Shown: one piece after another, positions 30,525 through 55,525 of the stretch
Layout: each line of letters opens with the position of its first letter
Position numbering within the stretch: position 1 is the stretch's first letter
NCBI RefSeq assembly: GCF_044324785.1
Contig: NZ_CP172127.1
Strand: one strand, 5' to 3'
DNA from: Escherichia coli
Lineage (GTDB): Bacteria > Pseudomonadota > Gammaproteobacteria > Enterobacterales > Enterobacteriaceae
Length of the DNA stretch: 64,000 nt
Made by a program: the position numbers and the translations under genes
Notes under the pieces: generated by a model
Databases searched by the model: none
What the model saw: only the letters and a program-made list of their open reading frames with translations
What the model was told of the DNA's origin: nothing

Positions 30525-30615
30525 CTGCTCTCCAATGACTAGTCTAAAAACTAGTATTAAGACTATCACTTATTTAAGTGATATTGGTTGTCTGGAGATT
30601 CAGGGGGCCAGTCTA

Positions 30616-30940: not shown

Positions 30941-31340
30941 CCGATATAGATGGGGAAGATGCTTTTATCCGGATTGGATCTATCGCGATGGTGCGAGTAC
31001 CACTTGATGCAATGGAGCCTGTCGAGGCAGATGACGAGTAACAGAGCTCGGTATCTCAATCAGGACCTGATTGTCCTGGTTCGATGCCGAAAACCAGTGA
31101 TTTTTCGTGTTGGTATCTGTGTTGGTATAGGATGGTGTTGTTTATTATTAACAATTTTAAATCATGAGGTTAAATCGCATGTTTGAGTCAGGCCTTCGCA
31201 TCAATATCAAAACAATCAATAAATAAGTCCTTTAACCTAGCCACGACCAATCATTGATCAACCACGAAATCCTCTCCGAAACACAGTCCCAATCCCTAAA
31301 CCCTACGCTCAACATCGAAACCCGCTTATCACCATCCCCC

Positions 31341-32210: not shown

Positions 32211-32389
32211 AGCGTTACATTGGCAGCTAAATAAATGCGATGATGCTCGCAAAATCCTTGCCGATCAACCTACCAGATGCGGCGATTCTACGTGGATCGC
32301 GATTTAATTATCACTGCCAGTTATTTGTTCGAAAAGACCATAGCTTTCTATTTATACTCAAGCTTCGCGCCATCAGATAGCTATGTCTT

Positions 32390-33028: not shown

Positions 33029-33072
33029 CATCCGACAGCGCTCGCTTTAATTACATCAAACACACCACAAAC

Positions 33073-33099
33073 CCCACGCTACCTTACCGGTAGCGTGGG
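33073..33099. terminator. Hairpin between convergent genes (HNH + / GH43 -)
   Basis: Perfect 11-bp stem CCCACGCTACC / GGTAGCGTGGG with TTACC loop; T-rich flanks are modest. Confidence 0.45.
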
Positions 33100-33110
33100 C
33101 CCACTCTCTT

Positions 33111-34790: not shown

Positions 34791-34848
34791 TTCATTACAC
34801 CTTTTAAAATGGAAAGTGACGAATCGGTCTGATTTATAATTTTTTTAA

Positions 34849-36342: not shown

Positions 36343-36714
36343 TTTCTGACACAGTTGACATGGAAGAATCTATTACGTTTTTAAATTAAGTAATTATGTT
36401 TTTTTACTTCTGTGATCCTCGAAGCAAAGACCTGTATCACTTGCGTTGAGCCGCCATCCGCCGCTAATTTTTTGGCAGACAGGCAATGTGACAAAACCGG
36501 CATTTTAATTCGCTATGCCCACCTGAATTCCCCAGGAAGTGTACTCTATACGCGCGCGAAGCGAGATATTTAAAATAGTTTTATTTGCGAGATGGCTCAC
36601 ATTTGAGCATTTTCTCAATCGCTGAGTGAAATAACGTAATTGAGCAACCGACGATGAGAATACACGATGTGTCACAGTTGTTAATTTTCGGCTTCCTCAA
36701 TTTCGGAGTTCATC

Positions 36715-38034
<1,320 letters not shown>

Positions 38035-38364
38035 ATTTGGCTGACATGCCCCTGCGGGGGCATGTATTCCGCCGTGTGCCCGCTGCCGGGAAATAGCGTT
38101 TATTTGTTCGTGTTGTATTTATGCTGTCTGTGCCGAAAGGCTATCTGTTTGACTGTCTATAGAGGAACAATCCGCCGCGCGGATGGTTCTGCCATTGTGC
38201 CACCTTTTTAATATCAGTGAGGGAGGGCGAGTAGCGATAATTGTGTAATGCCTCTGTGACCGTACAAAATAAAAAATAACTTGTTCTGATGATAGCGACA
38301 TATTCTGTCAGCTCAGAATAGGCTGGTTATTGTCTGAATAAAATTAACCTATATTGAGAAACTC

Positions 38365-39747
38365 ATGACAATGATAAAAAAACTTCCATTAACCATGGCG
38401 GTTATCGCCGCGTTTTTTCCGCTTACCTCTGTAATGGCGCAAGAATTTACTCAGGAACAGATCGACGCCATCGTCGCCAAAGCCGTTGATAAAGCGCTGG
38501 CCGACCGCCAGGCGAAAATTGACGCCGCGGCCGACAAAAAGGTCGACGTCATTACCAACCCACAGACCACCGCCGCCTCGCCGGATATGGCCATTCCGTT
38601 CGGCCTCAAGTTCAGCGGCTATGCCCGCTATGGCGCCCATTTCCAGACCGGCGACCAGAAATATGTCGGCGTCGACGGCTCCTATAACGGCGCCTCGGCG
38701 ATCGGCCGTCTGGGCAACGAAAGCAACGGCGGCGAATTCCAGATCAGCAAAGCCTTCAAAAGCGCGCAGGGGGCTATCTGGGATCTCAACGTCATGTTCG
38801 ACCACTGGAGCGACGAGGTTAACCTGAAGAAGGCCTACGTCGGCGTCACCAACGTGCTGGAATCCAATCCCAACGCCTATATCTGGGCCGGCCGCGACTT
38901 CCACCAGCGTCCGCAACAGGGGATCAACGACTACTTCTGGATGAACCACGACGGCCAGGGCGCCGGGGTGAAGAACTTTGATATCGGCGGCGTGCAGTTC
39001 GACGTGGCGGCGGTGTCGCAGGTGAAATCCTGTAGCCCGGAAGTGATGGCCGACGAGACCAACCCGTCGCGTATCACCTGTACCGGCAGCTCCGACACCG
39101 GGGACAACGGCCACTACGCGCTGACCACCAAAACCCACAACATCAAGGCCGGGCCGATCGACGTCGAGGTGTACGCCAACTACGGCTTTGACTCGAAGGC
39201 GGTGGACAGCGACGCGCGTCTCGAAGCCTGGCAGGGCGGCCTGGTGCTGAGCCACACCAACGACAGCGGGGTGAACAAGGTGATCCTGCGCTACTCCGAT
39301 AACTCGGATAACAGCGTCTACAACAAAACCGACGACCTGACCACGGTCTACGCTAGCTTCGAGGGCAGCCATAAGTTCACCCAGCAGGCGCAGGTGGAAT
39401 ATCTGCTGGCCTTCCACGACTACGACAACGGCAAAGATAATACCGACAACCGCAAAAACTACGGTGCCATCGTGCGGCCGATGTACTTCTGGAACGACGT
39501 GCACTCCACCTGGCTGGAAGCGGGCTACCAGCGCGTGGACTACGACCAGGGCGGGGATAACCACGGCTGGAAGCTGACGCTGTCGCAGAACATCGCCATC
39601 GGCATGGGGCCGGAGTTCCGTCCGATGCTGCGCTTCTACGTGACCGGCGGTCAGGTGGACAACGAGCATACCGCTAAGGTCAACGGCACCAAAGACCAGC
39701 AGCTGGATTCGCTGAACGTCGGCGGGATGTTTGAGGCGTGGTTCTGA
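38365..39747 (+). CDS. Carbohydrate-selective outer-membrane porin (LamB/ScrY family) with N-terminal coiled-coil extension
   Basis: 460 aa; signal peptide, ScrY-like N-terminal helical extension, C-terminal aromatic end (…MFEAWF). Confidence 0.65.
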   Translation: MTMIKKLPLTMAVIAAFFPLTSVMAQEFTQEQIDAIVAKAVDKALADRQAKIDAAADKKVDVITNPQTTAASPDMAIPFGLKFSGYARYGAHFQTGDQKYVGVDGSYNGASAIGRLGNESNGGEFQISKAFKSAQGAIWDLNVMFDHWSDEVNLKKAYVGVTNVLESNPNAYIWAGRDFHQRPQQGINDYFWMNHDGQGAGVKNFDIGGVQFDVAAVSQVKSCSPEVMADETNPSRITCTGSSDTGDNGHYALTTKTHNIKAGPIDVEVYANYGFDSKAVDSDARLEAWQGGLVLSHTNDSGVNKVILRYSDNSDNSVYNKTDDLTTVYASFEGSHKFTQQAQVEYLLAFHDYDNGKDNTDNRKNYGAIVRPMYFWNDVHSTWLEAGYQRVDYDQGGDNHGWKLTLSQNIAIGMGPEFRPMLRFYVTGGQVDNEHTAKVNGTKDQQLDSLNVGGMFEAWF

Positions 39748-39819
39748 TGCGATAGCGTTGTCGAAGGAGCGTTCCCGGCTGGCGCTACGCTTAGCCGGGC
39801 TACGACTGGTGCGCTCCAT

Positions 39820-40045
39820 TTATGCCGGATGGCGGCATACATGCCTTATCCGGCCTACGTTTCTGAGGAGGCCTGCGGGATACCCCCCAGGCCCGGCAGG
39901 CGCAGCGCCGCCGGGCAGGACACTTCAAGCTCCATACCTGTGGTTGTGCCGGATGGCGGCATAAATGCCTTATCCGGCCTACGTTCCTGAGGAGGCCTGC
40001 GGGATCCCCTCCCAGGCCCGCGCAAGCGCAGCGCCGCCGGGCAGC
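39820..40045. repeat. Two tandem copies of a REP-type palindromic unit (about 95 bp each)
   Basis: …tgccggatggcggcata(c/a)atgccttatccggcctacg…gaggaggcctgcggga…caggcccg…gcgccgccgggcag appears twice (about 39823 and about 39948). Confidence 0.6.
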
Positions 40046-40059
40046 TGGCCCAGGTTCCC

Positions 40060-41019
40060 TCAGTTCACCGTCAGGCGCAGGGCAAGATCCTGCGGGTAGG
40101 GGTCAAAATAGTTCTGCGCCTGCAGGTAGCGATCCGGATACTCGGCCAGATAGTGCTTAAGCAGCGTCAGCGGCGCGAGGATCGGCAGCAGCCCGGCGCG
40201 ATAGTTGAGGATCACCTCCCGCAGCTCGCCGCGCTGGCGGCTGTTCAGCTGGTCGCGGAAATAACCCTGAATATGCATCAGCACGTTGGTGTGGTTTTTC
40301 CGAGAGGCGGGCCGCTTGAGGATCGCCATCAGCTTTTCGCGATAGACCTCGAAGAAAGCCTCCAGATCCTCCCATTCATGCAGCGAGGCGACGAAGGGGC
40401 CGATCTCGCGGTAGCCCGCCTGGTGGTGAGCCAGCAGCTGCAGCTTGTAGCGGCTGTGAAAGGCCAGCAGGCCGTGGCGGGTCAGGCCGCGGGCGCGCAG
40501 GGCGTTGAGTTCATGCAGGGCGAAGACGCGCTCGACAAAATTCTCCCGCAGCAGCGGATCGTGCAGCCGGCCATCCTCTTCCACCGGAAGCCACGGGTAG
40601 CGCGCCATCAGGGCGCCGGTAAACAGCCCCACGCCTTCCTTACGCCCGCGATTGCCTTTTTCATCATACAGCCGCACGCGCTCCATCCCGCAGATCGGCG
40701 ATTTGGCGCAGACGATAAAGCCCGACAGCTCGCCCAGGGTTGCCAGATGGGCGTTGGCGAAATCGGCCATCTTCTCCGTCACATCCTCGTGCGGGGCGTG
40801 GCTGAAGCGCATGCGGATCTCCCCGACCGGGGTCTGCACCAGCCGGAGCGCCGGGCGGGGAACGGGCAGGCCGATCGCCATCTCCGGGCAGACGGGCTTA
40901 AACGCCACCCACTGCGCGAGCTCATCCATCACAAAGCCCATACGCTTATGCCCGCCGTCGAATCGCACGGCTGAGCCGGTTAAACATCCGCTGATCCCAA
41001 TGACAGGTTGCGTGTTCAT
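40060..41019 (-). CDS. YbgA-family protein (DUF523 plus DUF1722)
   Basis: 319 aa; N-terminus MNTQPVIGISGCLTGSAVRFDGGHK… is typical of the family. Confidence 0.65.
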   Translation of the reverse strand: MNTQPVIGISGCLTGSAVRFDGGHKRMGFVMDELAQWVAFKPVCPEMAIGLPVPRPALRLVQTPVGEIRMRFSHAPHEDVTEKMADFANAHLATLGELSGFIVCAKSPICGMERVRLYDEKGNRGRKEGVGLFTGALMARYPWLPVEEDGRLHDPLLRENFVERVFALHELNALRARGLTRHGLLAFHSRYKLQLLAHHQAGYREIGPFVASLHEWEDLEAFFEVYREKLMAILKRPASRKNHTNVLMHIQGYFRDQLNSRQRGELREVILNYRAGLLPILAPLTLLKHYLAEYPDRYLQAQNYFDPYPQDLALRLTVN

Positions 41020-41567
41020 GGCGCTGTCCTCTCTTCTGCTGTGGTTCGGGTAAAGAAAAGGGTCACGGTGGCCACCGTAATGCCGAATTTCTTCATCTCG
41101 GTTTTGTTAAACAAATGGCTGCCGTCCTGCAGGAACATCCAGTCGTCAAAGTGCAGCAGCCACCGGCTGCCGCTGGCCTCGACGTTCATGCTGTAGCGCC
41201 AGTGAAAGGCATTGCCTGCCGCCTGGCCGCTGGCCACGCCTTCGATATCCCCGGCGGTGCCCTGATAATGGTTATCGCCGGTGCGGCGAATGCGCCACAC
41301 CCGCTGCTGTTTCTCGCCATCGTCATAGACAAAGCGCTCATGGAGCGTCAGGGTGTCGCCGACGACGTCGCCATCGATCGCTACATGGAAGCGGCGCAGC
41401 TGTTTACCGCGGCGATCCTGCACCATCCCCCACGCCTCGGTTCGACCCTGAAAATAGTGGAAGATGTCGAGGGCGGGCTGCTGCTGCCGGTACTCGGTGA
41501 CCTCGATGCTGCAGCCGGCGAGCATCAGCATCAGCAGCGCCAGGCCACGGGTCAGAATGCGTTTCAT
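41016..41567 (-). CDS. Putative lipoprotein (DUF3833-like)
   Basis: 183 aa; lipobox LAGCS after signal peptide; translationally coupled to the YbgA-family gene. Confidence 0.5.
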   Translation of the reverse strand: MKRILTRGLALLMLMLAGCSIEVTEYRQQQPALDIFHYFQGRTEAWGMVQDRRGKQLRRFHVAIDGDVVGDTLTLHERFVYDDGEKQQRVWRIRRTGDNHYQGTAGDIEGVASGQAAGNAFHWRYSMNVEASGSRWLLHFDDWMFLQDGSHLFNKTEMKKFGITVATVTLFFTRTTAEERTAP

Positions 41568-41606
41568 GGTGTACCTCCGATCAACTGCTGACGCAGTTCG
41601 GGATAA

Positions 41607-43691
41607 GTGGTGCGCGGATCGAGCCAGAACTCGCTGACGCTGAGCGCAGGAGATGTGACCAACAGCGGCCGGATTCAGGGGCAGAACATTACTCTGGATG
41701 CCAGCAGCCTGACCAGCAGCGGTGCTGTTCAGAGTGCGCTGGAGTTGGCTCTGACCCTGAGTGGCGATGTTATTGCTGCCACCGGCAGAAAAATTACCGC
41801 CCTGGGCGATGCCCGCCTTACCGGGAAAGTGCTGGGTAACCAGGGATTAATCAGCGCGAAGACGCTGGAAGTGAATGGTGATTCGCTCAGCAACGGTGGC
41901 GAAATCAGTGGTGTTAACAGCCTGAATGTGACACTCAGTGGTAATCTGCAACAGCACGGTAAAATGCTGACAGGCGGTACATTAAACGTCAACGCCAGAG
42001 ACATCAGCAATAGTGGGCAGCTTCAGGGGGCGGATAACCGAATCACCGCCAGTTCGCTGACCAACTCAGGTCGTGTGCAGGGCGACAGCGGGCTGACTCT
42101 TACATTGCTGAATGCCCTGACCAACCAGACCAGCGGTGTGCTTCTCAGTCAGAACGTATCAGCGCTTTCTGCACCTGTGCTGACTAATGACGGCACCATT
42201 CAGGGCAACGGTAAAACCACGCTCAGCGCGGCAACGCAGGCCCACAACAGTGGCAAGATTCTTTCCGGCGGTGAGCTGACGTTCACCACGCCGGACTACA
42301 GTGGCAGTGGCTGGCTACAGGCCACTGACCTGCTGCTGAACGTGGCGAAGCTTGCCGGTAATGGCACTGTGATGGCGGCGAATCAGGCAACGCTCACAGG
42401 TAACAGTCTGACCAACCGTGGCCTGTTCCAGGCTGCACAACTGAACGTCAACACGCAGACCATCACCAACAGCGGCACGCTGCTGGGTAATCAGGGCCTG
42501 ACAATAAAAGGGAACAGCCTGAACAACGCCGGCGGGAAGGTGTTCAGCGGCGGTGATATGCTTGCTGAAATGGTCTCGCTCAGCGGCGCGGGCCAGCTGG
42601 TTACACTCGGTAACCTGACGCTGAAGCTCACACGTGGTTTGACCGCACAGGGCGTTATCGCCGCGAATAAACAACTCTCCGTCAGCAGCCAGGGTGATAT
42701 TACCAATGGCGCCACATTGCAGGGCAACGGTATCACGCTGAATGCTGCAGGCAGGCTGACCAACAATGGCCAGTTGACCGCCGGCAACGGCACCACGGCA
42801 CTGAGCGGCAGCGGGATTGCGATGAATGCCAGCGGCAGCCTGCAGGCAGGCGGGGACGTCAGCCTGACCAGCAGGGGAGATATCACTCTCGACGGTTTTA
42901 CCGGCACGACGGGTAGTCTGGTGTTAACGGTCGCCGGGGCAGTCATTAACACCGCACTGTTGTATGCGGGCAATAACCTCTCGCTGTTTGCCAGCACCAT
43001 CCGGAACCATCACGGCGATATGCTGGCGGGTTACAGCCTGGTGATGCAGAAAGATGTCAGTGGTGCCGCGAATGCTGAAGTGATTAATACCTCCGGGAAT
43101 ATCGAAACCACCCGCGGTGATATCACCATCAGAACCGGACATTTACTGAATCAGCGGGAGGGTATAAATGAGACAAAATCATACATTCCGGTTGAGAATG
43201 TCGCAGTACCTGATGGTGTAAATTCTGTTTCAGTCAGAGTGGGCGATTTAGGTGAAAATGGATGGGGATATTATGTGAAGTCCTGGAGCGGTACTGCCGG
43301 TGGTGGTTTTGAGGCATGGGCCGTTCCGACTGAAAAGGGAGCCACCCGGAAATTTCTGACTGGCACAACACGCGTCGATGTTGGTGCAACAGGGGGGGAT
43401 GCCAGAATTTCGGCCGGTAATAATCTGCTGATTGACGCGAACAAACTGGATAATACGGGAAGTCATCTTCTTGCCAGCGAGTTTGTCAGCCTGTCGGGTT
43501 CACAACTGAATAATCAGTCCTTCTTTGGCTATACACAGGATGAATACAATGTGTATCGCTATTACGGCAAACTGGCCATGATCCCCAACGACGGGCATCT
43601 GCAGTATGGAGATGCTTCTGCCGATGATCGCGTTACCTTTACTCTCTCCGGAGCTCCGGAATATGTCACCAGAGACACCGGTCAGGCGTAA
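41607..43691 (+). pseudogene. Internal fragment of a CdiA/FhaB-family two-partner-secretion exoprotein (beta-helical repeat region only)
   Basis: 694-aa frame with no credible start or TPS domain; repetitive motifs (…LTNSGRVQGDSGLTL…, …ITNSGTLLGNQGLTI…); the stop codon is contributed by the adjacent IS66-family end. Confidence 0.7.
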
Positions 43692-43758
43692 GCGTACAGC
43701 CTGAACCGTCTGGTCAGAATCTGACGAATTAGACAAAGTGGTGTCCACCAAATAAGTA

Positions 43759-44160
43759 GTGGGAACCAAAGTGTCAGATATGCAGAAAAATGTGACTCCC
43801 GGCAGGCGAAAAGGCTGCCCTAATTATCCTCCCGAATTTAAACAGCAGCTCGTTGCTGCCTCCTGTGAACCCGGGATATCCATCTCAAAACTTGCTCTTG
43901 AAAATGGCATTAACGCCAATCTGTTGTTCAAATGGCGACAACAATGGCGCGAGGGAAAGCTGCTATTACCTTCTTCAGAGAGCCCCCAGCTACTTCCTGT
44001 GACTCTCGATGCAGCTGCCGAACAGCCAGAATCGCTCGCAGAGGGCCCGGAAACCCTCAGTATCAGCTGTGAGGTAACGTTCCGGCACGGGACGCTCCGC
44101 TTCAATGGCAATGTCAGCGAAAAGCTCCTGACTCTGCTGATACAGGAACTGAAGCGATGA
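43759..44160 (+). CDS. IS66-family accessory protein TnpA (orfA)
   Basis: 133 aa; first of three overlapping IS66-type ORFs. Confidence 0.8.
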   Translation: MGTKVSDMQKNVTPGRRKGCPNYPPEFKQQLVAASCEPGISISKLALENGINANLLFKWRQQWREGKLLLPSSESPQLLPVTLDAAAEQPESLAEGPETLSISCEVTFRHGTLRFNGNVSEKLLTLLIQELKR

Positions 44161-44504
44161 TCCCGTTACCTTCCGGGACCAAAATTTGGCTGGTTGCCGG
44201 TATTACCGATATGAGAAATGGCTTCAACGGCCTGGCTGCGAAAGTACAGACGGCGCTGAAAGACGATCCCATGTCCGGCCATGTTTTCATTTTCCGGGGC
44301 CGCAGCGGCAGTCAGGTTAAACTGCTGTGGTCCACCGGTGACGGACTGTGCCTCCTGACCAAACGGCTGGAGCGTGGGCGCTTCGCCTGGCCGTCAGCCC
44401 GTGATGGCAAAGTGTTCCTTACACAGGCGCAGCTGGCGATGCTGCTGGAAGGTATCGACTGGCGACAGCCTAAGCGGCTGCTGACCTCCCTGACCATGCT
44501 GTAA
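44157..44504 (+). CDS. IS66-family TnpB (orfB)
   Basis: 115 aa; [28 protein letters not shown]… typical TnpB; 4-bp overlap with orfA. Confidence 0.85.
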
Positions 44505-44553
44505 ATCTCTTTATCCTGGTTGTCACAGAATAAGCCCGGTAAAATACGGGCTT

Positions 44554-46092
44554 ATGAACGACATCTCTTCTGACGACATCTTCCTGCTGAAACAGCGCCT
44601 GGCCGAACAGGAAGCGCTGATCCACGCCCTGCAGGAAAAGCTGAGCAACCGGGAGCGCGAAATAGACCATCTGCAGGCGCAGCTGGATAAACTCCGCCGG
44701 ATGAACTTCGGCAGTCGTTCCGAAAAAGTCTCCCGCCGTATCGCACACATGGAAGCCGATCTGAACCGGCTTCAGAAAGAGAGCGATACGCTGACTGGTA
44801 GGGTGTATGACCCGGCAGTACAGCGTCCGTTGCGTCAGACCCGCATCCGTAAGCCGTTCCCTGAATCACTACCCCGTGACGAAAAGCGACTGTTGCCTGC
44901 GGCGCCGTGCTGCCCGAACTGCGGCGGTTCACTGAGCTATCTGGGTGAGGATACCGCCGAACAGCTGGAGTTGATGCGTAGCGCCTTCCGGGTTATCCGG
45001 ACGGTACGGGAAAAACATGCCTGTACTCAGTGCGATGCCATCGTGCAGGCACCTGCACCTTCGCGGCCCATCGAGCGGGGTATCGCCGGACCGGAGCTGC
45101 TGGCCCGCGTGCTGACCTCGAAGTATGCAGAGCACACCCCGCTGTATCGCCAGTCAGAAATATACGGCCGGCAAGGTGTGGAGCTGAGCCGTTCACTGCT
45201 GTCGGGCTGGGTGGATGCATGCTGCCGGCTGCTGTCTCCGCTGGAAGAGGCGCTTCATGGCTATGTCATGACTGACGGCAAACTCCATGCCGATGATACC
45301 CCGGTCCAGGTACTGCTGCCGGGTAATAAGAAGACGAAGACCGGGCGGTTGTGGGCGTATGTTCGTGATGACCGCAATGCCGGGTCAGCGTTGGCACCTG
45401 CAGTGTGGTTCGCTTACAGCCCGGACAGAAAAGGCATCCATCCGCAGACTCATCTTGCTTGCTTCAGCGGTGTGCTGCAAGCGGATGCGTACGCCGGGTT
45501 CAACGAGCTGTATCGCAATGGTGGGATAACGGAAGCTGCCTGCTGGGCTCATGCCCGCCGAAAGATCCACGATGTGCACGTCCGCATCCCGTCAGCACTG
45601 ACGGAAGAAGCCCTGGAGCAGATCGGTCAGTTGTACGCCATAGAGGCGGATATAAGGGGAATGCCGGCAGAGCAGCGGCTTGCTGAACGTCAGCGAAAAA
45701 CGAAACCGCTGTTGAAATCCCTGGAAAGCTGGTTGCGTGAAAAGATGAAGACCCTGTCGCGACACTCAGAGTTGGCGAAGGCGTTCGCGTACGCACTTAA
45801 CCAGTGGCCGGCACTGACGTACTATGCGAACGATGGCTGGGTGGAAATCGACAACAACATCGCTGAAAATGCCCTGCGGGCGGTAAGTCTGGGTCGTAAA
45901 AACTTCCTGTTCTTCGGCTCTGGCCATGGTGGTGAGCGGGGAGCGCTACTGTACAGCCTGATAGGGACGTGCAAACTGAATGACGTGGATCCAGAAAGCT
46001 ACCTTCGCCATGTGCTTGGCGTCATAGCAGACTGGCCGGTCAACCGGGTCAGCGAACTGCTTCCGTGGCGCATAGCACTGCCAGCTGAATAA
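44554..46092 (+). CDS. IS66-family transposase (orfC)
   Basis: 512 aa; N-terminal leucine-zipper-like region, CxxC…CxxC zinc motif (CPNCGG…CTQCD) and DDE core. Confidence 0.9.
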
Positions 46093-46129
46093 CACATCCC
46101 CGTCAATACGGCCCTCGCTGTACGCTTAC

Positions 46130-46892
46130 TAATCCGCCGTGAATATAAATCAACAACGAGTGCGAGATAACACCATTTGTCCTGCAGGCGAATAAAACTG
46201 ATGTTGCCGCACCAGACGCGGTTTGGTGCGGCGGGGTGAAATTGCCGGTTCAGTAAATTTGGCAATGGCGGACTTTTGTCTTCGTTTACCCGGTAGTGAT
46301 GTTTAACTGGCTGTCGACTTGTCAGCCCGCATTCCCGCATCAGTCGTCGTGCCAGCCACCGGCCTGCATCAACGCCACTATGGCGCAACATCTGACTGAT
46401 TGCCCGGCTACCGACTGCGCCACGACTGAGAGCATGGACAGCCCTCACCCGACTTCGTAATTCAATTCTTTGCACATTAACAGGACGCTTCACCTGCGCG
46501 TAATAAATGCTACGGTGAATACCGAATAAATGACAAAGAACCCGCACTGGCCACTTTGCTTTCAGCCGTGTGATTAGCGCGACAGTTTCCCCGGGGATTT
46601 CGCTCATCAGCACGGCAGCCTGCTTTAGTATTTCTTTTTCCATCTCAGGGCGCTTTATCTGCGCTTTAAGCTGCTTAATTTAGCGTTGTTCAGGAGTAAT
46701 AGCATTACCAGCGGGCTCAATACCCTGAAGTTCCTGCTTATACAACTGTATCCATTTACGCAAATGGTCAGGGTTGAGCTCGAGTGCCAGCGCGACTTCT
46801 CTGACATCACGCTGGTATTTAACCACCTGTTCGATAGCTTCAAGCTTGAACTCCGGGGAAAAGGTACGTTTAGTCCGACGAGTTTTGATCAT
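46130..46892 (-). pseudogene. IS3-family element remnant: orfA (46680..46892) plus 5' portion of orfB (46130..46643), truncated by the IS66-family insertion
   Basis: The orfB frame runs into the IS66 terminal repeat, where the track ORF 45999..46643 finds its stop. Confidence 0.7.
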
Positions 46893-47031
46893 GCATCACC
46901 TCATTTTCACTTTTTAACATTAACAGTGAAAATGAGGTGTCCTGAATTACCGATCCACTACACAGAGAGTGACCAAAGGATAACGTGTCCTGAGTTTCCC
47001 TATTATAGAGAACTGTTCAGGGAGTCTGACA

Positions 47032-47304
47032 TCAAGAGTGCAGTAGCCTTTTTAATATTTCATTCTCCATTTCAATGCGTTGTAGCTTTTTCCTCAGCTC
47101 ACGTATTTCGATTTGTTCTGGTGTCATCGGAGAGGCTTTTAGTGTTTTGCCCTGACGCTCATCACGCAGTTGTTTGACCCATCTTGTCATTGTGGAAAGG
47201 CCGATATCCATAGCTTTGGCGGCATCTGCCACCGTATAGTTCTGGTCAACAACCAGTTGGGCGGATTAGCGTTTAAACTCTGCGCTAAAATTTCTTTTTT
47301 TCAT
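47032..47304 (-). pseudogene. IS911 orfA remnant carrying a nonsense codon
   Basis: Minus strand reads [32 protein letters not shown]…; TAA replaces the expected GAA at codon 13; the run of A before G is one A shorter than the A6G frameshift motif; IS911-like terminus at about 47376. Confidence 0.7.
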
Positions 47305-47376
47305 TAGGGCACCAGTCTTGTTCTGAGGTGAGCATATCACCTCTGTTCAGGTGACCAAATTCAGTGTGCCATTTCA

Positions 47377-47560
47377 GTCTGTAATGCGCTGTGTGAAAAA
47401 GCTCACTGACAGTCTGAGTATTTGTCTGCAAAGGATGGAGGCCCGTCGAGGGTTCCTGAAAACCACTGGTGTGCTGGCGAATAAGCTGACAAGAATCATC
47501 TGGCGTGTTTTGAGCGATAGTATTGATTTTAATATGCAGAAGGCCGTTGTGATGAATTAA
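47377..47560 (+). pseudogene. Possible C-terminal fragment of an IS110-family transposase
   Basis: …TTGVLANKLTRIIWRVL… resembles IS110-family C-termini; only about 60 codons. Confidence 0.35.
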
Positions 47561-47982
47561 ATAAAAACAGTAAGTTATAGAAAATATTTTTAACTGAGTT
47601 TACATTCACTGATGAGATAACGGCTACCGCCCCTGTAACAGTCTGAAGTTGACCTGGGTAATCAAATACCGGTGTAGTGATTAGGAAACAGGGCCCGGAT
47701 AACATCATGGCGCAGGTCATTGAACCTACTAACGACGCCGGATATATGGTCGCAAACCGCATCGAACCAGTACTTGCCTCATCTGGGACGTCCATATATG
47801 CTCAACAAAAGAGAGCGTTCAGAATCCTAGCCTCACATCATACCTGAAACCGCGTCCCGACCATAGATGATTTTATCGCCGGTTTTTTATGACAATTGTT
47901 ATATTTCCGTAACAATCTTTCCGTAGACTCACGTGCATAAAAATGATTCCCCTTGAAATCGATTTTTTGAAAGGAAACCGCA

Positions 47983-49962
47983 ATGGGCAGACCGTTAAAA
48001 ACTTTATTCAAACGTGAGCATAGTGAAGAAATCAGTAACCCGAGCGATAACCGCGCGTTTTCGCAGGTGGCGGAAGTTTATTTGTCACGCCGCCGTCTGT
48101 TACAGGCCGGCACGGTCGCCGGTGCCGCGGCAGCGTTCCCATTTCTGCTGAAACAGGAAAACGCGCTGGCGAAAGTGGTCTCCAAAGCAAGCGGTAACCT
48201 CGGCAAAGCGACGACGCTCGGTTTCACCAGCCTGCCGGTTTCCACGGAAGATACCGTTATCGTGCCGGAAGGATACATCGCGAAGCCCTTCTACAAATGG
48301 GGCGACGCCACCGGGATTGCCGGAAATCTGCCGGTTTTTAAAACCGACGGTAGCAACACCACGGAAGAACAGGCGGCGCAGGCCGGGATGCACCACGACG
48401 GCATGGCGTGGTTTAGCCTGCCGCAGGGCGGGAACAGCTCCGATCACGGCCTGCTTGCCATAAACCATGAATACATCGATAACGGTCTACTGTTTAAAGA
48501 TGGCGATGCCAACTGGAGCGCCGATAAAGCTCTTAAAGGCCAGAACGCGATGGGCGTGTCGGTCATTGAAGTAAAAAAAGTGCCCCTGGGCTGGGAAGTG
48601 GTGCGCCCGTCATCGTTCGCACGCCGCATCACCGTTAACACGCCGATGAAAATCACCGGTCCGGCGCTGCATAACCCACTGATGCAAACAGTTGACGATC
48701 CGAAAGGCGAAATCATTCTCGGCACCATGCAGAACTGTGCCAACGGATTTACGCCGTGGGGCACCTATCTGACGTGTGAAGAGAACTGGTCCGATATTTT
48801 CGTAAAAAAAGCAGAGATGAACCCGCTGGAAAAACGTTACGGTATCAGCGGGAGCGACGACTCTTACCGCTGGAACGAAGTGGATAAAAGGTTCAGCGTC
48901 GACGCCACGCCGAACGAGCCGAACCGCTTCGGCTGGGTGGTGGAAATCGATCCATACGATCCGCATTCAGTGCCGCGCAAGCACACCGCGCTTGGTCGCA
49001 TCAAACACGAAGGCGCGGCGGTGACAATTGCCCCGGATAACCGCGTTGTGGTCTATATGGGCGATGACCAGAAATTCGAATACATATATAAATTTGTCTC
49101 GGAAGGAAAATTCAACCCGCAGGATCGCAAAGCCAACATGCACCTGCTGGAAAAAGGCACTCTGTACGTGGCGAAATTTAACGACGACGGCAAAGGCGAG
49201 TGGCTACCGCTGGTGTTCGGACAAAATGGGCTCGACGCCAGTAAAGGGTTTGAAAACCAGGGCGACCTGTTGATTAAAACCCGTCTGGCGGCAGACGCCG
49301 TGGGGGCCACTAAAATGGACCGCCCGGAGTGGATTGCGGTCGATCCATATCACGCCGGCAGCGTTTACTGCACGCTCACCAACAACAGCGATCGCGGTAC
49401 GGAAGGAAAAGCGCCAGTGGATGCGGCCAACCCGCGCGCCAAAAACGTTTACGGCCACATCATTCACTGGCTGGAGCATAACGGCGACCCGACCGCGCTG
49501 CAGTTTGCCTGGGATATTCTTGTGATGGGCGGTCGCACCGATACGGACAAACCGGAAACCAAAGGCAGCATGAAGGGTGCGGAATTCGGCAGCGCCGATG
49601 GCCTGAGCTTCGATCACCGCGGCGTGCTATGGATCCAGACCGACGTGTCGTCATCAACCATCAATAGTAAAGATTACAAAGGCATGGGCAACAACCAGAT
49701 GGTGGCGACGATCCCCGGTACCAATGAGTTCCGCCGCTTCCTGACCGGCCCGCGCGGCTGCGAAATCACCGGCATCGCGTTCACTCCGGATAATCGGACG
49801 CTGTTTATTAACATCCAGCACCCTGGCGAGCCAAGCGAAGGGCTTAGCGATCCGCAGCATCCGACGGCAGTATCAAGCTGGCCTGACGGCGATAAGGCTG
49901 GTCGTCCGCGCTCCTCAACTGTCGTTATCGTAAAAGCCGACGGCGGCATAATCGGCACCTGA
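47983..49962 (+). CDS. phoX: PhoX-family alkaline phosphatase (Tat-secreted)
   Basis: 659 aa; twin-arginine signal SRRRLLQAGTVAGAAAA; PhoX/DUF839 architecture. Confidence 0.8.
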   Translation: MGRPLKTLFKREHSEEISNPSDNRAFSQVAEVYLSRRRLLQAGTVAGAAAAFPFLLKQENALAKVVSKASGNLGKATTLGFTSLPVSTEDTVIVPEGYIAKPFYKWGDATGIAGNLPVFKTDGSNTTEEQAAQAGMHHDGMAWFSLPQGGNSSDHGLLAINHEYIDNGLLFKDGDANWSADKALKGQNAMGVSVIEVKKVPLGWEVVRPSSFARRITVNTPMKITGPALHNPLMQTVDDPKGEIILGTMQNCANGFTPWGTYLTCEENWSDIFVKKAEMNPLEKRYGISGSDDSYRWNEVDKRFSVDATPNEPNRFGWVVEIDPYDPHSVPRKHTALGRIKHEGAAVTIAPDNRVVVYMGDDQKFEYIYKFVSEGKFNPQDRKANMHLLEKGTLYVAKFNDDGKGEWLPLVFGQNGLDASKGFENQGDLLIKTRLAADAVGATKMDRPEWIAVDPYHAGSVYCTLTNNSDRGTEGKAPVDAANPRAKNVYGHIIHWLEHNGDPTALQFAWDILVMGGRTDTDKPETKGSMKGAEFGSADGLSFDHRGVLWIQTDVSSSTINSKDYKGMGNNQMVATIPGTNEFRRFLTGPRGCEITGIAFTPDNRTLFINIQHPGEPSEGLSDPQHPTAVSSWPDGDKAGRPRSSTVVIVKADGGIIGT

Positions 49963-49985
49963 TTCTGTTTATCCGTCATTAAAAA

Positions 49986-50011
49986 CGCAGGCGCGGTTAG
50001 CCTGTGTTTTT
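49986..50011 (+). terminator. Putative rho-independent terminator after phoX
   Basis: Short GC stem (cgcaggc…gcctgtg) followed by TTTTT. Confidence 0.35.
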
Positions 50012-50091
50012 ATGGTAAAGTCCTGTCAGTCCGCGCGCTGGCTTCCTTCAACGCTTTGTCGTAATTTTTGTCAGTCTGCTCGTAGTCTGGA

Positions 50092-50455
50092 ATGCCCGGA
50101 ATTCCTCAACGCTATGCCACTGTTCAGGCGCGGTGTGATGAGAGGGGCGTCGCTGGGTTATGCCTTTCCGGGCACGATTCTGGCGATTGGTTTTCTGACT
50201 CCCTAAATGACCGCTGGCTGTCGGAACTACTGGATTACAGGGGGTTACCTTTAATGTCTGTCGGTGTCCTGTTGGTGATTTGCTGTACGATGCGATTTCA
50301 GGCAATAGCCATCGGCGCACTTGATGTCCGGCTGGGACGTATACCAGAGTCACTGGAACAAGCCTCACGTCTGCTGGGAGAAAATGGTACAGGAACTTTT
50401 GTTCGGGTTCACTTTCCTGTGTTGCTCTGGTGAGCAGTGCCCTGCTGGTTTTCAC
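50092..50455 (+). pseudogene. Fragments of an ABC-transporter permease (EAA-loop region), frameshifted
   Basis: …RIPESLEQASRLLGENGTGTFVRVHFPVLL… and …GASLGYAFPGTILAIGF… in different frames without a credible start. Confidence 0.5.
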
Positions 50456-50801
50456 TGATGCGATGAAAGAACTGCCAGTAACACTTCTTTATTCCGAATC
50501 GCTCTTCCGGACGATTAAGTATTGTTCATGGTGGCCGGAGAATGGTTTTCGAACCATAGATGAAGCCAGAAGTTGGTTAAGCAAGTTCACGCAATGGTAC
50601 AACCTGGAACACAAGCACAGCGGTATTAAGTATGTTACTCCGGATGAACGCCATCGCGGAATTGATGCACAAATACTGGAAGCCAGAAAAAAAGTTTATC
50701 GCGAAGCTCGCAAGCGTCATCCTGAGCGCTGGAGCAAACAGTTGCGTGACTGGGAACTCATTCAGGCAGTTTATCTGAATCCAGAAAAAGAAGCGACATA
50801 A
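50430..50801 (+). pseudogene. C-terminal fragment of an integrase-core (rve-type) transposase
   Basis: …WYNLEHKHSGIKYVTPDERHRG… resembles transposase C-termini; the reading frame continues from the permease fragment with no start. Confidence 0.45.
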
Positions 50802-51311
50802 CGTAATTTTATTACATCAGGCGACAACTACCTTGAAAAACGCCGGAAATAACTGACTCTTTACCCGCTGCCATGCAGTGGGCTTTTTTATATCCCCCCT
50901 TCACAAACTCTGCTCACTGGTTATACCGGTTCACCTTTCCGGCTTGTAACCGCATGCACTCTGGACTGCCAGTCAGCTCATGTATGTCTCTTCCTTAATT
51001 GTGTTCATGAACAGGTGACACCTTATCTCCTGACAGAATAAACAAATTTTATTAATTCTGCTCTTCGCCAGCCCACTGCTACCATCTGTCGCGACGGGGC
51101 ATGGCTGCCTGCATGGCATGCATTTGTTGTGTCTGTGCTGACTGAACACGATAAAATTTTCCGGTTAATGAAGATCGATATCATCGATCGATTCGATCGA
51201 AATTATTCTATTGAGAATATCTGTTACCCGCTTTTAAAATATTCAAAGTACTATTTGCAGCAACGGAACAATAGCGGAGGTAATTGAAATAAAAAGATTT
51301 TTGCTGTTTCA

Positions 51312-52028
51312 GTGGTAGCCGCAGCCTGTGTATTTGCAGCAAATGCAGGTGCTGAGGAAGGTAAAAGCGGTTTTTATCTGACCGGTAAAGCCGGTGCCTC
51401 TGTGATGTCACTTTCAGACCAGCGTTTCCTGTCAGGAGATGAGGAAGAAACGTCAAAGTATAAAGGCGGCGATGACCATGATACGGTATTCAGTGGTGGT
51501 ATCGCGGCTGGTTATGATTTTTATCCGCAGTTCAGTATTCCGGTTCGTACAGAACTGGAGTTTTACGCTCGTGGAAAAGCTGATTCGAAGTATAACGTAG
51601 ATAAAGACAGTTGGTCAGGTGGTTACTGGCGTGATGACCTGAAGAATGAGGTGTCAGTCAACACACTAATGCTGAATGCGTACTATGACTTCCGGAATGA
51701 CAGCGCATTCACACCATGGATATCTGCAGGGATTGGCTACGCCAGAATTCACCAGAAAACAACTGGTATCAGTACCTGGGATTATGAGTACGGAAGCAGT
51801 GGTCGCGAATCGTTGTCACGTTCAGGCTCTGCTGACAACTTCGCATGGAGCCTTGGCGCGGGTGTCCGCTATGACGTAACCCCGGACATCGCTCTGGACC
51901 TCAGCTATCGCTATCTTGATGCAGGTGACAGCAGTGTGAGTTACAAGGACGAGTGGGGCGATAAATATAAGTCAGAAGTTGATGTTAAAAGTCATGACAT
52001 CATGCTTGGTATGACTTATAACTTCTGA
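51312..52028 (+). CDS. Outer-membrane beta-barrel protein (opacity/Ail/OmpX-like superfamily); start uncertain
   Basis: Alternating amphipathic strands and C-terminal …LGMTYNF; a better signal peptide (KKIFAVSVVAAACVFAANA) is encoded in frame upstream but lacks an ATG. Confidence 0.55.
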   Translation: MVAAACVFAANAGAEEGKSGFYLTGKAGASVMSLSDQRFLSGDEEETSKYKGGDDHDTVFSGGIAAGYDFYPQFSIPVRTELEFYARGKADSKYNVDKDSWSGGYWRDDLKNEVSVNTLMLNAYYDFRNDSAFTPWISAGIGYARIHQKTTGISTWDYEYGSSGRESLSRSGSADNFAWSLGAGVRYDVTPDIALDLSYRYLDAGDSSVSYKDEWGDKYKSEVDVKSHDIMLGMTYNF

Positions 52029-52208
52029 CGACACTGCTCCTGAACGATAATTGCGTATATTCTGTAATTAAGATAATTGCATATCTTCTGCAATTAAACA
52101 GAAATACCCTGCAGTCTATTACTGCAGGGTTGTCTGTTATCTGTTTTACAGATAATTCTGATTTTTATTATCTTGTTCTCTTCATAATAATGTTGTCGAT
52201 ATACTCCG

Positions 52209-53711
52209 ATGAATATCAGAAAACTGTTTTGTCCGGGAAACACCCCCCGGATTTTATTGTTTTTATTCTTTTTTGTTGTTTCTGTAATAACCACAATTGC
52301 ATGCGGATACACTGAGAAGAATGCCACCGGGAATGTGTTGCTGCTGTTCCTTCTTCTGCTCCTTGCACACAGAAATACCCTCACATCCATTACAGCGCTG
52401 TTATTTCTGTTCTGTTGTGCACTGTATGCGCCTGCCGGTATGACGTACGGTAAAATCAACAACAGTTTTATTGTCGCGTTGCTGCAGACCACAACTGATG
52501 AGGCAGCGGAGTTTACCGGGATGATTCCTGTTTATCATTTTCTGGTCAGTGCCGCGATTCAGGTATTCATGGTGATTTTCTGGCGAACACACCGCCGTGG
52601 TCACCGTAACTGGCTGGCACTGCTGCTGTTCGTATTATGCTCAGTAAACAGCTGGCCGTTGCGGATGGTTAAAGGAACTGTTGTGGGGACAACTGACACA
52701 TTGCGTGAAATGCAACATTATAAACAACTGAGTCAGCACGGGGCTGACAACTGGAAAATCCTGCCGGGAACACCGTTATATGACACAATTGTTATTGTCA
52801 CTGGTGAGAGTGTGCGCAGGGATTATATGTCGGTATATGGCTATCCCGTGCCAACCACGCCGTGGCTGAATACAGCTCCCGGTTTATTTATTGACGGCTA
52901 TACATCGGCAGCAGCCAGTACCGTACCTTCCCTGAGCCGGACACTGATTTATGACTATGAGCAGAACCCTGACTCCGGCAACAACGTGGTGGCGCTGGCA
53001 GCAAAAGCAGGATACAGCACATGGTGGATATCCAATCAGGGAAAGCTGGGGGAGCATGATACACGCATCTCTGTTATTGCTTCTGATGCGGAGCATACCG
53101 TTTTCCTCAAGAAAGGCAGCTTTGCTTCCCGTAAAACGGATGACATGTTGTTGTTACAGGAAACAGAACGTGCACTGGCGGATAAATCCTCTCCGAAGGT
53201 GATTTTTCTGCACATGATGGGGTCTCATCCGAACCCGTGTGACCGGCTTCACTCCTGGCCGAATCATTACCTGGAGCAGTATCCCCGAAAGGTTGCCTGT
53301 TACCTCGCCAGCATCAGTAAACTGGATAACTTTCTCTGTCAGCTTGATGGTATCCTTCGCCGGCATTCCCGTCATTTCGCCATGCTTTACTTTTCTGACC
53401 ATGGTCTGTCGGTCAGCGACAGTGCTAATCCTGTTCATCATGATGGCCATATACAAGGAGGCTACAGCGTTCCCCTGATTATTACCGCCAGTGACATCAC
53501 GTCTCATCAGTCCGTCAGCAGAAAAATCAGTGCCCGTCATTTCGCAGGTATTTTTCAGTGGCTGACCGGCATTCGTACTGAAAATATACCGCCATTCAAT
53601 CCGCTGACAGACGAAGATAATGAACCCATTATGGTTTTTAACGGAGACAAGAATGTACCGACAGACAGCCTTGAGTCACAGCCTCTGATTCTTCCGGGCA
53701 AGGGAAAATAA
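52209..53711 (+). CDS. Inner-membrane sulfatase-fold phosphoethanolamine-transferase-family protein (EptA/OpgE/YhbX superfamily)
   Basis: 500 aa; N-terminal TM helices, then …TIVIVTGESVRRDYMSVYGY… and …VIFLHMMGSHPNPCDRL… resembling the PEtN-transferase HxxGSH motif region. Confidence 0.6.
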   Translation: MNIRKLFCPGNTPRILLFLFFFVVSVITTIACGYTEKNATGNVLLLFLLLLLAHRNTLTSITALLFLFCCALYAPAGMTYGKINNSFIVALLQTTTDEAAEFTGMIPVYHFLVSAAIQVFMVIFWRTHRRGHRNWLALLLFVLCSVNSWPLRMVKGTVVGTTDTLREMQHYKQLSQHGADNWKILPGTPLYDTIVIVTGESVRRDYMSVYGYPVPTTPWLNTAPGLFIDGYTSAAASTVPSLSRTLIYDYEQNPDSGNNVVALAAKAGYSTWWISNQGKLGEHDTRISVIASDAEHTVFLKKGSFASRKTDDMLLLQETERALADKSSPKVIFLHMMGSHPNPCDRLHSWPNHYLEQYPRKVACYLASISKLDNFLCQLDGILRRHSRHFAMLYFSDHGLSVSDSANPVHHDGHIQGGYSVPLIITASDITSHQSVSRKISARHFAGIFQWLTGIRTENIPPFNPLTDEDNEPIMVFNGDKNVPTDSLESQPLILPGKGK

Positions 53712-54070
53712 GCGTAATGTTCATCACCAGGTTATGTACGATGAGTTTTCCACTGTTTATAGCAATTATCTTGCTAATAACCAGACAGGAGTAACCAGAC
53801 CAACCGAAAACACCGGGGAGGTGATTACCCGCTGGCAGAGGAAATCCGGTTTTTTTTGATGTCAGCCATAACGTGTTTGACAATAAAGCATTATGAAAGG
53901 GTGTTAATGAGTCCATGGGATAATTCATAAAAATAATTTACTGTGTTGTCCTTTTCAAAAGAAATATTCAGAAGATAACCCCTGGCTGACAACCAGGGAA
54001 AGGGGACATTAACAGTATTATTATTGGTGGATAAATTATTACTTGTGTGCAGGATACACTAATGCAATAT

Positions 54071-55114
54071 CTACTGATACTGTATGCCAGAATGTTTCCT
54101 GCCTGCTGCTGAAAACGGCAATATCCAGGGCCAGACATATTCACCATTCATATTTCTGCATTTCTGTACAATTTTCTCAGAAAGCGTCTCATCAATTCTT
54201 TCACGCAACTTCTCCTGCTGTCTTAAAATACTTTCGTATATTTCGAAATCATCTTCCTGCATCAGCATTTCGGCGCATTTAATGATTTCTGCCCGTTCAT
54301 GCAGCACAGAGGAATGGTTATAGAGCCAGTTTACAAACAGCAATGCTTCCGGATATTGTCCCCATAATGGTGAGTATGTTGTATAATAATCTTCGGCAGT
54401 ATCCGGCCCTGCAGAATAGTTATGCCATACAGCAAGAGGAAATGGATGCAGATTTCCGCACAGCATTTCCGCGATGTAAGTATTTGCCGCAAATCCGCGA
54501 CGAAATGCAGTTGCAGCTTTTACCAGTTCCCCATTAAGAAAATGCAGAAGACCAAGTTCATACCAGTAAGGTGAAAATTCATCAGCATGTTTTTTCAGTA
54601 CACTGAAGGCTCGCTCATGATCACCTGTTCGTAACAGTTCTGAACCCAACAACCAGCGGGCACCCTGATTATCTTCAGGATTGTATGCCAGTATTTTATC
54701 AGTAAGCATAACCGCATCCTGATGACGCTGTAAGTGCACATTTGCGAGAATTGCTGCATAAAGCGCGCGCAGATAAGGCCGGTTTTCGGGATGCATCCAG
54801 ATGATTTCACCACTGAAACTTTCCGGGATGAGACGATTACCGGCCGCCAGTCCTTTAAGCGCGGCGTTCAGAGCCTTACGCGGGGCATTCTGCTCCAGAA
54901 ATGCATATGCCAGATGAGCGTGTATATCAATAAAGTCAGGCTCCCGTTGAGCAAGATGCCTGAGTTTGTTGATGTAACTCGTCTCGCTGATTTCATCAGT
55001 GTCGTATGCATCAAGCACTTCTTCAAACTCCCCCAGTAATGGGCCAAACCAGGTATCCGGAAATACGAAATAACCCTTGTTATCGTGCACTTCAAAGCAT
55101 AATCTATCGTTCAT
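54071..55114 (-). CDS. Hypothetical alpha-helical (possibly TPR-like) protein adjacent to the integrase
   Basis: 347 aa; no recognisable catalytic motif. Confidence 0.5.
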   Translation of the reverse strand: MNDRLCFEVHDNKGYFVFPDTWFGPLLGEFEEVLDAYDTDEISETSYINKLRHLAQREPDFIDIHAHLAYAFLEQNAPRKALNAALKGLAAGNRLIPESFSGEIIWMHPENRPYLRALYAAILANVHLQRHQDAVMLTDKILAYNPEDNQGARWLLGSELLRTGDHERAFSVLKKHADEFSPYWYELGLLHFLNGELVKAATAFRRGFAANTYIAEMLCGNLHPFPLAVWHNYSAGPDTAEDYYTTYSPLWGQYPEALLFVNWLYNHSSVLHERAEIIKCAEMLMQEDDFEIYESILRQQEKLRERIDETLSEKIVQKCRNMNGEYVWPWILPFSAAGRKHSGIQYQ

Positions 55115-55525
55115 TTTCTGAGCCTGTAAAACATGTGGTGATATAGTCTGAGAGCATAAAAGTTGAGATTCTGTGTATCAAGTCCTGTCTTGGCACCGAA
55201 TGAATATTGCTTACGAAGCCCCTTCATGCTTTCCTTGAGAACAATAATTTTATCTTTATGTGAATCTCATTTTTTATAATGATGTCAGATGATTGAAATG
55301 CTAAATTATATCTGAATCAACTTTTCCTTTGCTAAAGGTATCGAAATAACTGCAAGATTGTATTTTGTAATTGCCAATTTAAAAATGTCAATTTGTTTTT
55401 AATTATGTTTTTGTAATAAGTTTGAAGACACAAAAAAATAATATAATAACAAAAATCCTCCAGCCTTGTAGGCCAGAGGATAAAATACTTAATTGAGGAA
55501 AACATCAGGGAAAAGTATTTCTGAC

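Follow-up and report, generated by a model that had tools for sequence, protein, structure and literature searches.

The phoX gene in the window, the whole 64,000-nucleotide stretch of Escherichia coli DNA that was analysed, appears to be an autonomous, working-looking single-gene unit between IS scars in a mosaic piece of a tRNA island, with non-functional debris downstream. We give this reading a probability of roughly 85%. The case is ordinary and already known. RefSeq annotates phoX, the permease debris and the transposase debris in NZ_CP133856.1 (E. coli ES1, ST38), which is 100% identical to the window and in which the gene is named as a PhoX family protein. The identical protein (WP_000533458.1) of APEC BEN2908 is already listed as PhoX (GR 34, tRNA-Leu island, 4848866-4850845) in the S2 table of PMC12928451, where it is given as an alkaline phosphatase for use during phosphate starvation. 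The literature search on extraintestinal E. coli turned up no mention of PhoX other than that supplementary table.

The island is associated with selC and covers 15879..57104 including its bounding repeats and tRNA-Sec, with an insert of approximately 41 kb (15903-57009). The tRNA-Sec gene (57010-57104, minus strand) forms the island end and is adjoined by an integrase gene (approximately 55526-56710, minus strand; RefSeq annotation). The tRNA 3' end is present twice, as a perfect 24-bp direct repeat, at 15879-15902 and 57010-57033, and the core genes setC and yicJ flank the island on either side in the RefSeq annotation. GC content within the island ranges from 0.35 to 0.65. The locus thus shows the features of a tRNA-associated island, namely insertion at a tRNA 3' end, an adjacent tyrosine recombinase, direct repeats and atypical composition. 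A preliminary description of this DNA had called phoX island cargo, and the tRNA-Sec gene, integrase and 24-bp repeat bear this out.

The gene itself lies at 47983..49962 on the plus strand and encodes 659 amino acids. Its product matched Pfam PF05787 across positions 2-515 of the 515-position profile (E = 6.4e-166; 553.9 bits, cut-off 24), and residues 70-658 aligned to residues 2-585 of chain A of 3ZWU, the Pseudomonas fluorescens PhoX (E = 1.7e-167). All 195 of the 195 columns invariant in 78 homologues are retained, including R36, R37 and C252 of the QNCANG motif; the invariant columns were used here, in place of mapped metal ligands, to stand in for the metal-binding active site. PhoX thus looks intact, as first described. 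The start codon at 47983 is supported because the long N-terminal region preceding the RR motif is conserved in relatives. A putative Tat-type signal, as attributed to the protein, was recovered as a twin-arginine motif, S35-R-R-R-L-L-Q41 (codons 35-41, 48085-48105), in which R36 and R37 are invariant in 78/78 homologues, with the Pfam TAT_signal match below threshold (16.7 bits vs 22.7). A hydrophobic stretch follows, and then A-L-A (residues 61-63), a possible signal-peptidase site.

By homology, PhoX would be a monomeric Fe3+/Ca2+-dependent phosphomonoesterase, the family being described as Ca2+- and Fe3+-dependent (PMC5768637). We infer that it folds in the cytoplasm, is exported by Tat and frees phosphate from organic esters in the periplasm under phosphate scarcity. 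The model for this putative export route is a distant relative, the C. jejuni PhoX, which PMC3197622 describes as Tat-translocated and contributing to phosphate metabolism. The P. fluorescens enzyme (PDB 3ZWU, 4A9V, 4A9X, 4ALF) is homologous across the whole mature protein and shares motifs including QNCANG-TPWGTYLTCEEN, but differs in host and context, the E. coli gene being horizontally acquired island cargo known here from sequence.

Closer relatives are the chromosomal PhoX proteins of Franconibacter, Siccibacter, Enterobacter, Leclercia, Citrobacter and Buttiauxella, which are of equal length and show 75-81% amino-acid identity. They have in common with the island PhoX the N-terminal extension, an SRRRF/LLQ motif, a Pho-box-like promoter element and a ribosome-binding site, but their genes lie in ordinary contexts without IS debris, for example downstream of a TonB-dependent receptor. 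No copy above 81% identity was found in the sampled species as a donor of the island gene. Around phoX, the BEN2908 module matches the window in its IS debris, permease fragment, outer-membrane protein gene and phosphoethanolamine transferase gene. It differs in lying at leuX with a different integrase, in carrying T at the equivalent of position 47908 and in keeping ugpB and a phytase-like gene, and it has been annotated by computation only. Another E. coli protein, the Ec42 PhoX (WP_004175379.1, asnT island), likewise adjoins a tRNA-island integrase and lies upstream of a metal ABC transporter. It differs in having 74% nucleotide identity and a neighbouring transporter that is intact and of another family (zinc AztABCD). 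Other enterobacterial islands also place this second PhoX type next to the aztABCD zinc importer, a hint at a connection with zinc that is taken up below.

A candidate promoter (47896..47929, plus strand) precedes phoX. It consists of a Pho-box-like site, TTGTTATATTTCCGTAAC (47896-47913), and, 10 bp further on, the -10-like hexamer TAGACT (47924-47929). The Pho box consensus is CTGTCATAWAWCTGTCAY, placed approximately 10 bp upstream of the -10 hexamer, and the site matches it at 13/18 positions. A search of the window for Pho boxes allowing up to four mismatches over the 14 specified bases gave no match. In approximately 25 Enterobacteriaceae phoX loci a homologous site, TGTTATAAAAnTGTAAC, with TACACT-like hexamers lies at the same distance to the ATG and matches the consensus better. 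The candidate promoter in the island is homologous to these chromosomal Pho-box promoters. At 47908 the window and four other E. coli alleles carry C; BEN2908 and every relative carry T, the consensus base. With this C in place of T, any PhoB control may be weakened.

The preliminary description had also given phoX its own terminator. Right after the stop codon we found a terminator-like 12-bp hairpin followed by a U-run, AAAAACGCAGGC-GCGGUUA-GCCUGUGUUUUU (49981..50011, plus strand), which folds at a dG of -20.2 kcal/mol (z -2.86). The G+C-rich stem, U-run and position fit the pattern of an intrinsic terminator, which is thus predicted from sequence, and the phoX transcript probably ends there. 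A pattern-based terminator scan listed 49981-50011 for the minus strand alone; the stem is preceded by an A-run and followed by a U-run, and the hairpin looks bidirectional. It contains no variable sites among the six E. coli alleles. Rfam detected no structured RNAs between 46800 and 51400 at E values up to 1.

The alkaline phosphatase on which E. coli K-12 relies is PhoA, a zinc enzyme. Approximately 2% of complete E. coli genomes carry on mobile islands a second, mechanistically different alkaline phosphatase, which, if active, could add zinc-independent phosphate scavenging and may matter in host niches. A more specific proposal is that PhoX is a zinc-independent (Fe/Ca) substitute for PhoA, selected in extraintestinal and avian pathogenic E. 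coli as host zinc sequestration impairs PhoA while phosphate is being scavenged, with the C/T difference at 47908 tuning or uncoupling regulation. We regard this proposal as speculative and unlikely to hold as it stands. The stakes are modest and the locus reveals no new kind of system, but it illustrates cleanly how a single gene can survive amid a patchwork of IS scars.

Upstream, the nearest scar is IS3-type transposase debris (46002..47232, minus strand) with Pfam HTH_Tnp_1, HTH_21 and partial rve fragments, called frameshifted, truncated IS3 family transposase pseudogenes by RefSeq. The same debris is present in other E. coli copies of the phoX module. Between it and the promoter lies a spacer (47233..47895) that accompanies phoX in every E. 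coli copy, at 98.9-99.2% identity in five other E. coli loci; it had no match in the loci of other species and none in Pfam or Rfam. An ORF within the spacer (47351-47560) was considered as an IS110 transposase fragment, a guess made from its C-terminal sequence, and rejected as it has neither a Pfam match nor similarity to the IS110 pseudogene of CM2.

Purifying selection on phoX is supported by the differences among the six E. coli alleles. Across 452 synonymous and 1525 nonsynonymous sites we counted 12 synonymous and 4 nonsynonymous differences (pN/pS approximately 0.1), against a neutral expectation of approximately 1 to 3.4 (binomial p = 1.4e-5); the estimate is based on 16 variable sites in six alleles, and some of the divergence may be older than the entry into E. 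coli. This ratio speaks against phoX being neutral cargo that arrived too recently to decay and is under no selection in E. coli. Such an origin would fit the rarity of the gene, which occurs in 98/5426 complete E. coli genomes, and the non-consensus C at 47908 in 5/6 alleles. It would also fit the incomplete retention of the gene: in approximately 375 other E. coli records, chromosomes and plasmids alike, a relic of approximately 112 bp is the sole remainder of a related phoX copy. However, every family-invariant residue is kept, adjacent sequence of the same age has multiple frameshifts, and the module persists at several chromosomal sites in different lineages (selC here, leuX in BEN2908). 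Taking both sides together, we consider a neutral recent arrival improbable. The CM2 phoX allele is annotated as frameshifted by a 2-bp loss in an A7 run. We considered this as a sign of decay and set it aside; with the loss in such a run and many frameshift-flagged neighbours, it is probably an assembly error.

Downstream of phoX, the decay reported in the preliminary description was evident. The region 50066..50492 (plus strand) is a fragment of a two-domain ABC permease pseudogene, corresponding to residues 365-510 or thereabouts of 562 in tblastn and blastn alignments to the intact CX21 homologue. It belongs to the BPD_transp_1 family and is named 'iron ABC transporter permease' by RefSeq. 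Only about a quarter of the gene (approximately 145/562 codons) is present and the N-terminal two thirds are absent. Three 7-bp deletions and an in-frame stop split the fragment over three reading frames, and these lesions are common to 6/6 E. coli alleles. A complete permease ORF of approximately 560 amino acids with adjacent binding-protein and ATPase genes was not found, and the region is thus a pseudogene fragment. No binding-protein or ATPase gene, no ATPase debris and no remaining part of the permease were found elsewhere in the window; ugpB and the phytase-like gene are likewise absent from the rest of it.

The proximity of this fragment to phoX might suggest that both descend from one phosphorus-acquisition operon, comprising phoX, binding protein, permease, ATPase and perhaps ugpB and the phytase-like gene, in which an internal deletion took out the binding-protein gene and the N-terminal two thirds of the permease and left the phosphatase alone functional. 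The two lie in the same orientation, and permease homology begins 55 bp past the phoX hairpin. The debris of CM2 and NRZ14408 runs on into an ATPase pseudogene, followed directly in CM2 by ugpB and a phytase-like esterase, and both ugpB and the phytase-like gene are retained in the BEN2908 island. Among named NCBIfam models, those scoring best for the binding protein, permease and ATPase of the intact homologue are components of a 2-aminoethylphosphonate transporter, but at 50-257 bits against cut-offs of 310-593, far below what would allow a substrate to be assigned. The genomic distribution also argues against a common operon. We scanned 100,044 species genomes for PhoX and compared the 80 loci kept with the permease. 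Among the phoX loci fetched from other species, none had this permease adjacent to phoX; three had weak permease matches (approximately 22-25% identity) several kb upstream. The genes beside phoX differ between genera in the 13 loci examined. Conversely, no phoX gene was found within 8 kb of intact operons of binding protein, permease and ATPase in three lineages (Buttiauxella, E. coli and Pectobacterium). In addition, phoX has its own promoter element and putative terminator. An ancestral operon is thus, in our view, a distinctly unlikely origin for this arrangement.

With PhoX relatives lacking the transporter and intact transporter operons lacking phoX, the adjacency looks like island mosaicism, and there is no support for a functional partnership. 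All E. coli copies have the permease truncated mid-gene at the same point past the phoX hairpin, indicating that the transporter was no longer functional by the time the module started to spread in E. coli. On the mosaic reading, rearrangement probably fused a piece of an unrelated ABC importer permease to phoX before the spread of the module among E. coli islands. The selective retention proposed in the preliminary description is therefore upheld as far as selection on the phosphatase is concerned; the contrast it drew with the loss of a functional neighbouring transporter is not.

It is almost out of the question that errors of sequencing or assembly produced the permease and transposase fragments and hide an intact gene: nothing was found in favour of this, the same three 7-bp deletions, 5' truncation and junctions recur in six independent complete assemblies and must therefore be real, 93 E. 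coli records carry the stretch of phoX plus debris at 99% identity or more, and about three quarters of the permease codons are missing. Reassembly of the fragments into an intact permease, which the preliminary description had named as the outcome that would overturn it, is thus ruled out by cross-genome comparison.

The permease fragment is truncated by the 3' remnant of an IS3-family element (50493..50856, plus strand), which retains the last 100 or so transposase codons (stop at 50799-50801) and approximately 55 bp of IS end. A Pfam rve_3 match (E = 1.9e-8) identifies the coding part. The element is incomplete, without a whole transposase or both terminal inverted repeats, and consists of its final 364 bp only, with the C-terminal rve_3 part and one end. 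Its left boundary is marked by the CM2 and NRZ14408 copies, which part from the window exactly at 50493, and the IS3 tail was probably gained later, in one sub-lineage. The right boundary is set by matches of 93-96% to IS3 family transposase copies, which stop at query position 364, and the remnant thus extends approximately 55 bp beyond the end at 50801 given previously.

The phoX gene lies on a mobile insertion. ARAGORN identified a tRNA-Sec gene on the minus strand at 57010-57104, and 24 bp of its 3' end recur without a mismatch as a direct repeat at 15879-15902. The inserted island is thus delimited at 15903-57009 (~41 kb); selC borders it on one side and the core genes setC and yicL on the other, and phoX is confirmed as island cargo. 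In the RefSeq annotation, from which gene order was taken, IS66 and IS3 debris comes first, followed by the PhoX family protein (WP_000533458.1), a frameshifted and N-terminally truncated ABC transporter permease pseudogene, genes for an outer-membrane protein, a phosphoethanolamine transferase and a TPR protein, and finally a tyrosine recombinase and tRNA-Sec. Strain ES1 (E. coli ST38, NZ_CP133856.1) carries the region 47400-51300 on its chromosome at 100% identity, and at least 80% of it is present in 57 complete E. coli genomes. The combination of phoX and downstream debris is ordinary and already annotated. The S2 table of PMC12928451 gives the name PhoX to the identical protein of APEC strain BEN2908, encoded in the leuX island (GR 34), and our literature search found no experimental work on E. 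coli phoX.

The phosphatase gene itself is intact. Its 659-aa ORF spans 47983-49962, the Pfam PhoX match covers the whole profile (E=6e-166), and residues 70 to 658 align with the solved P. fluorescens enzyme (E=1.7e-167). It was compared with 80 PhoX loci of other species (59-81% identity), 78 of which supplied full-length proteins for alignment. All 195 columns invariant among these 78 homologues are kept in E. coli PhoX, among them the twin arginines R36 and R37 and the cysteine C252 of the QNCANG motif. The E. coli gene clearly belongs to the PhoX family. Relatives share an unusually long conserved stretch ahead of the RR motif (MGRPLK...EHSEEISN...), indicating that the start codon at 47983 is right. 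The Pfam TAT_signal match was sub-threshold; Tat dependence is predicted from the twin-arginine motif and from family knowledge, of which C. jejuni PhoX is an example (PMC3197622).

By contrast with the phosphatase, the downstream permease and transposase fragments are decayed, as the preliminary description had stated. The intact homologue in E. coli strain CX21 belongs to a three-gene operon encoding a binding protein, a 562-aa permease and an ATPase, and of this permease the window keeps just residues ~365-510. Protein matches (83-85% identity) are spread over three reading frames, and the DNA is interrupted by a TAA stop and, at three separate places, by 7-bp deletions. The frame-breaking lesions lie at ~50112, 50211 and 50424, each exactly 7 bp deleted relative to the intact homologue; a chance origin of three deletions of equal length seems unlikely. 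In the longer permease copies of strains CM2 and NRZ14408 a 39-bp deletion comes next. The same 5' truncation and frame-breaking lesions are common to all six aligned E. coli copies, those of ES1, GF60, CM2, NRZ14408, TUM1886 and BEN2908, which rules out assembly errors as their source and indicates that the transporter was no longer functional by the time the module diversified in E. coli. CM2 and NRZ14408 part from the window sequence exactly at 50493, their permease continuing to its end and being followed by a frameshifted ATPase pseudogene. At this point the window switches to an IS3-family element (rve_3), whose last 364 bp occupy 50493-50856, overrunning the described end of the feature by ~55 bp. 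As read from these alignments, the IS3-family truncation at 50493 is later than the permease lesions. By membership tests, neither the permease nor the IS pieces class as functional genes.

The preliminary observation is confirmed, and its interpretation, selective retention of the phosphatase against loss of its neighbour, is partly supported. Of the 16 sites that vary among six phoX alleles, 12 are synonymous and 4 nonsynonymous (one of the 4 private to CM2), giving a pN/pS of ~0.1 (452 synonymous and 1525 nonsynonymous sites; binomial p=1.4e-5); the flanks vary at ~1.5%. These counts, from few alleles (six), support purifying selection on phoX. The annotated frameshift in CM2 phoX, where 2 bp are missing from an A7 run, was discounted as a probable assembly error; the assembly is full of frameshift flags. 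Retention is not universal. In ~375 E. coli records, including strains B and BL21, ATCC 8739 and many plasmids, all that remains is a ~112-bp relic (codons ~288-326), annotated as a 141-bp 'alkaline phosphatase' pseudogene (4000-4140 in comparison locus L005, 6000-6140 in L091). Its counterpart in the window is 48845-48956 (91-93% identity), and this phoX is nearer to it than the gene of any other species is. Thus, in an element of far wider distribution, a sister copy of phoX was destroyed. In both loci examined the relic lies just 3' of a 3.5-kb autotransporter gene.

A functional link of PhoX to the lost transporter was not borne out. This permease adjoins phoX in none of the PhoX loci of other species, and the neighbours vary across the 13 loci whose flanks were examined (a TonB-dependent receptor 5'; an amino-acid permease, adenylate kinase or AztA 3'). 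No PhoX gene lies within 8 kb of the intact transporter operons of Buttiauxella, another E. coli lineage and Pectobacterium. The RefSeq name 'iron' for the permease is generic, the nearest named NCBIfam families being putative 2-aminoethylphosphonate transporter components, far below threshold. The transporter was probably not PhoX's partner. A looser phosphorus theme around the module has one point in its favour: in CM2 an orphan ugpB and a phytase-like esterase gene follow the debris, and both are kept in the phoX island of BEN2908. Neither is in the window.

Upstream, BLAST similarity to relatives starts merely 15 bp 5' of the ATG. Inspection of upstream regions revealed a shared element ~77 bp 5' of the start in about 25 Enterobacteriaceae, consisting of TGTTATAAAAnTGTAAC, then AA, a short spacer and a TACACT-like hexamer. 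The homologous site in the window is Pho-box-like (TTGTTATATTTCCGTAAC, 47896-47913), with a -10-like hexamer, TAGACT, 3' of it at 47924-47929. We take this arrangement to be the geometry of PhoB promoters, with the Pho box in place of the -35 element. PhoB control of phoX is plausible on this basis, and may be weakened. The site is imperfect (13/18 consensus positions), and at position 47908, in its second half-site, five of the six E. coli alleles (ES1, GF60, CM2, NRZ14408 and TUM1886) have C where BEN2908 and every relative from other genera have the consensus T. The ~660-bp spacer further 5' (47233-47895) is 99% conserved in all E. coli copies and contains a 69-aa ORF, 'hypothetical' in the GF60 annotation; it had no Pfam or Rfam match and no counterpart in other species. 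PhoX was also said to have its own terminator, and a 12-bp hairpin with a U-run is predicted 3' of the stop codon at 49981-50011 (-20.2 kcal/mol, z -2.9). A simple terminator scan reports it on the minus strand only, and the hairpin looks bidirectional. An Rfam search of 46800-51400 gave no match.

The same phoX module occurs at differing chromosomal sites among E. coli strains: at leuX adjoining a different integrase (BEN2908), beside sitABCD (CM2), near an rRNA operon (NRZ14408) and near an S6-family autotransporter (GF60 and TUM1886). Its behaviour is that of a shuffled island module, not of part of one fixed island. A second, Klebsiella-like PhoX type (WP_004175379.1) is present in the asnT island of strain Ec42 (L003, 6785-12899), its gene sharing 74% nucleotide identity with the window phoX. 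It directly follows the tRNA-Asn island integrase and precedes an intact zinc importer, aztABCD; the PhoX-then-AztA order recurs in Superficieibacter and Phytobacter loci.

The integrase-proximal cargo at 51312-55114 comprises three genes, a set that accompanies phoX in several islands: a 238-aa beta-barrel outer-membrane protein (OMP_b-brl; NCBIfam adhesin Adr subfamily match sub-threshold), a 500-aa phosphoethanolamine transferase (Sulfatase and EptA_B_N; distant matches to CptA, EptA and MCR) and a 347-aa TPR protein. Also inside the island (~31341-33028), RefSeq annotates a phosphorothioated-DNA-binding restriction endonuclease adjoining an HNH endonuclease, which may be a defence pair. 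On the core side beyond the island (~4454-11416) are type III secretion-related genes, for which the RefSeq annotation gives a SycD/LcrH chaperone, a YopB/SseC translocon subunit, an IpaD/SipD-like tip protein and the HilA-family regulator EilA, with the inverse autotransporter IatC farther left.
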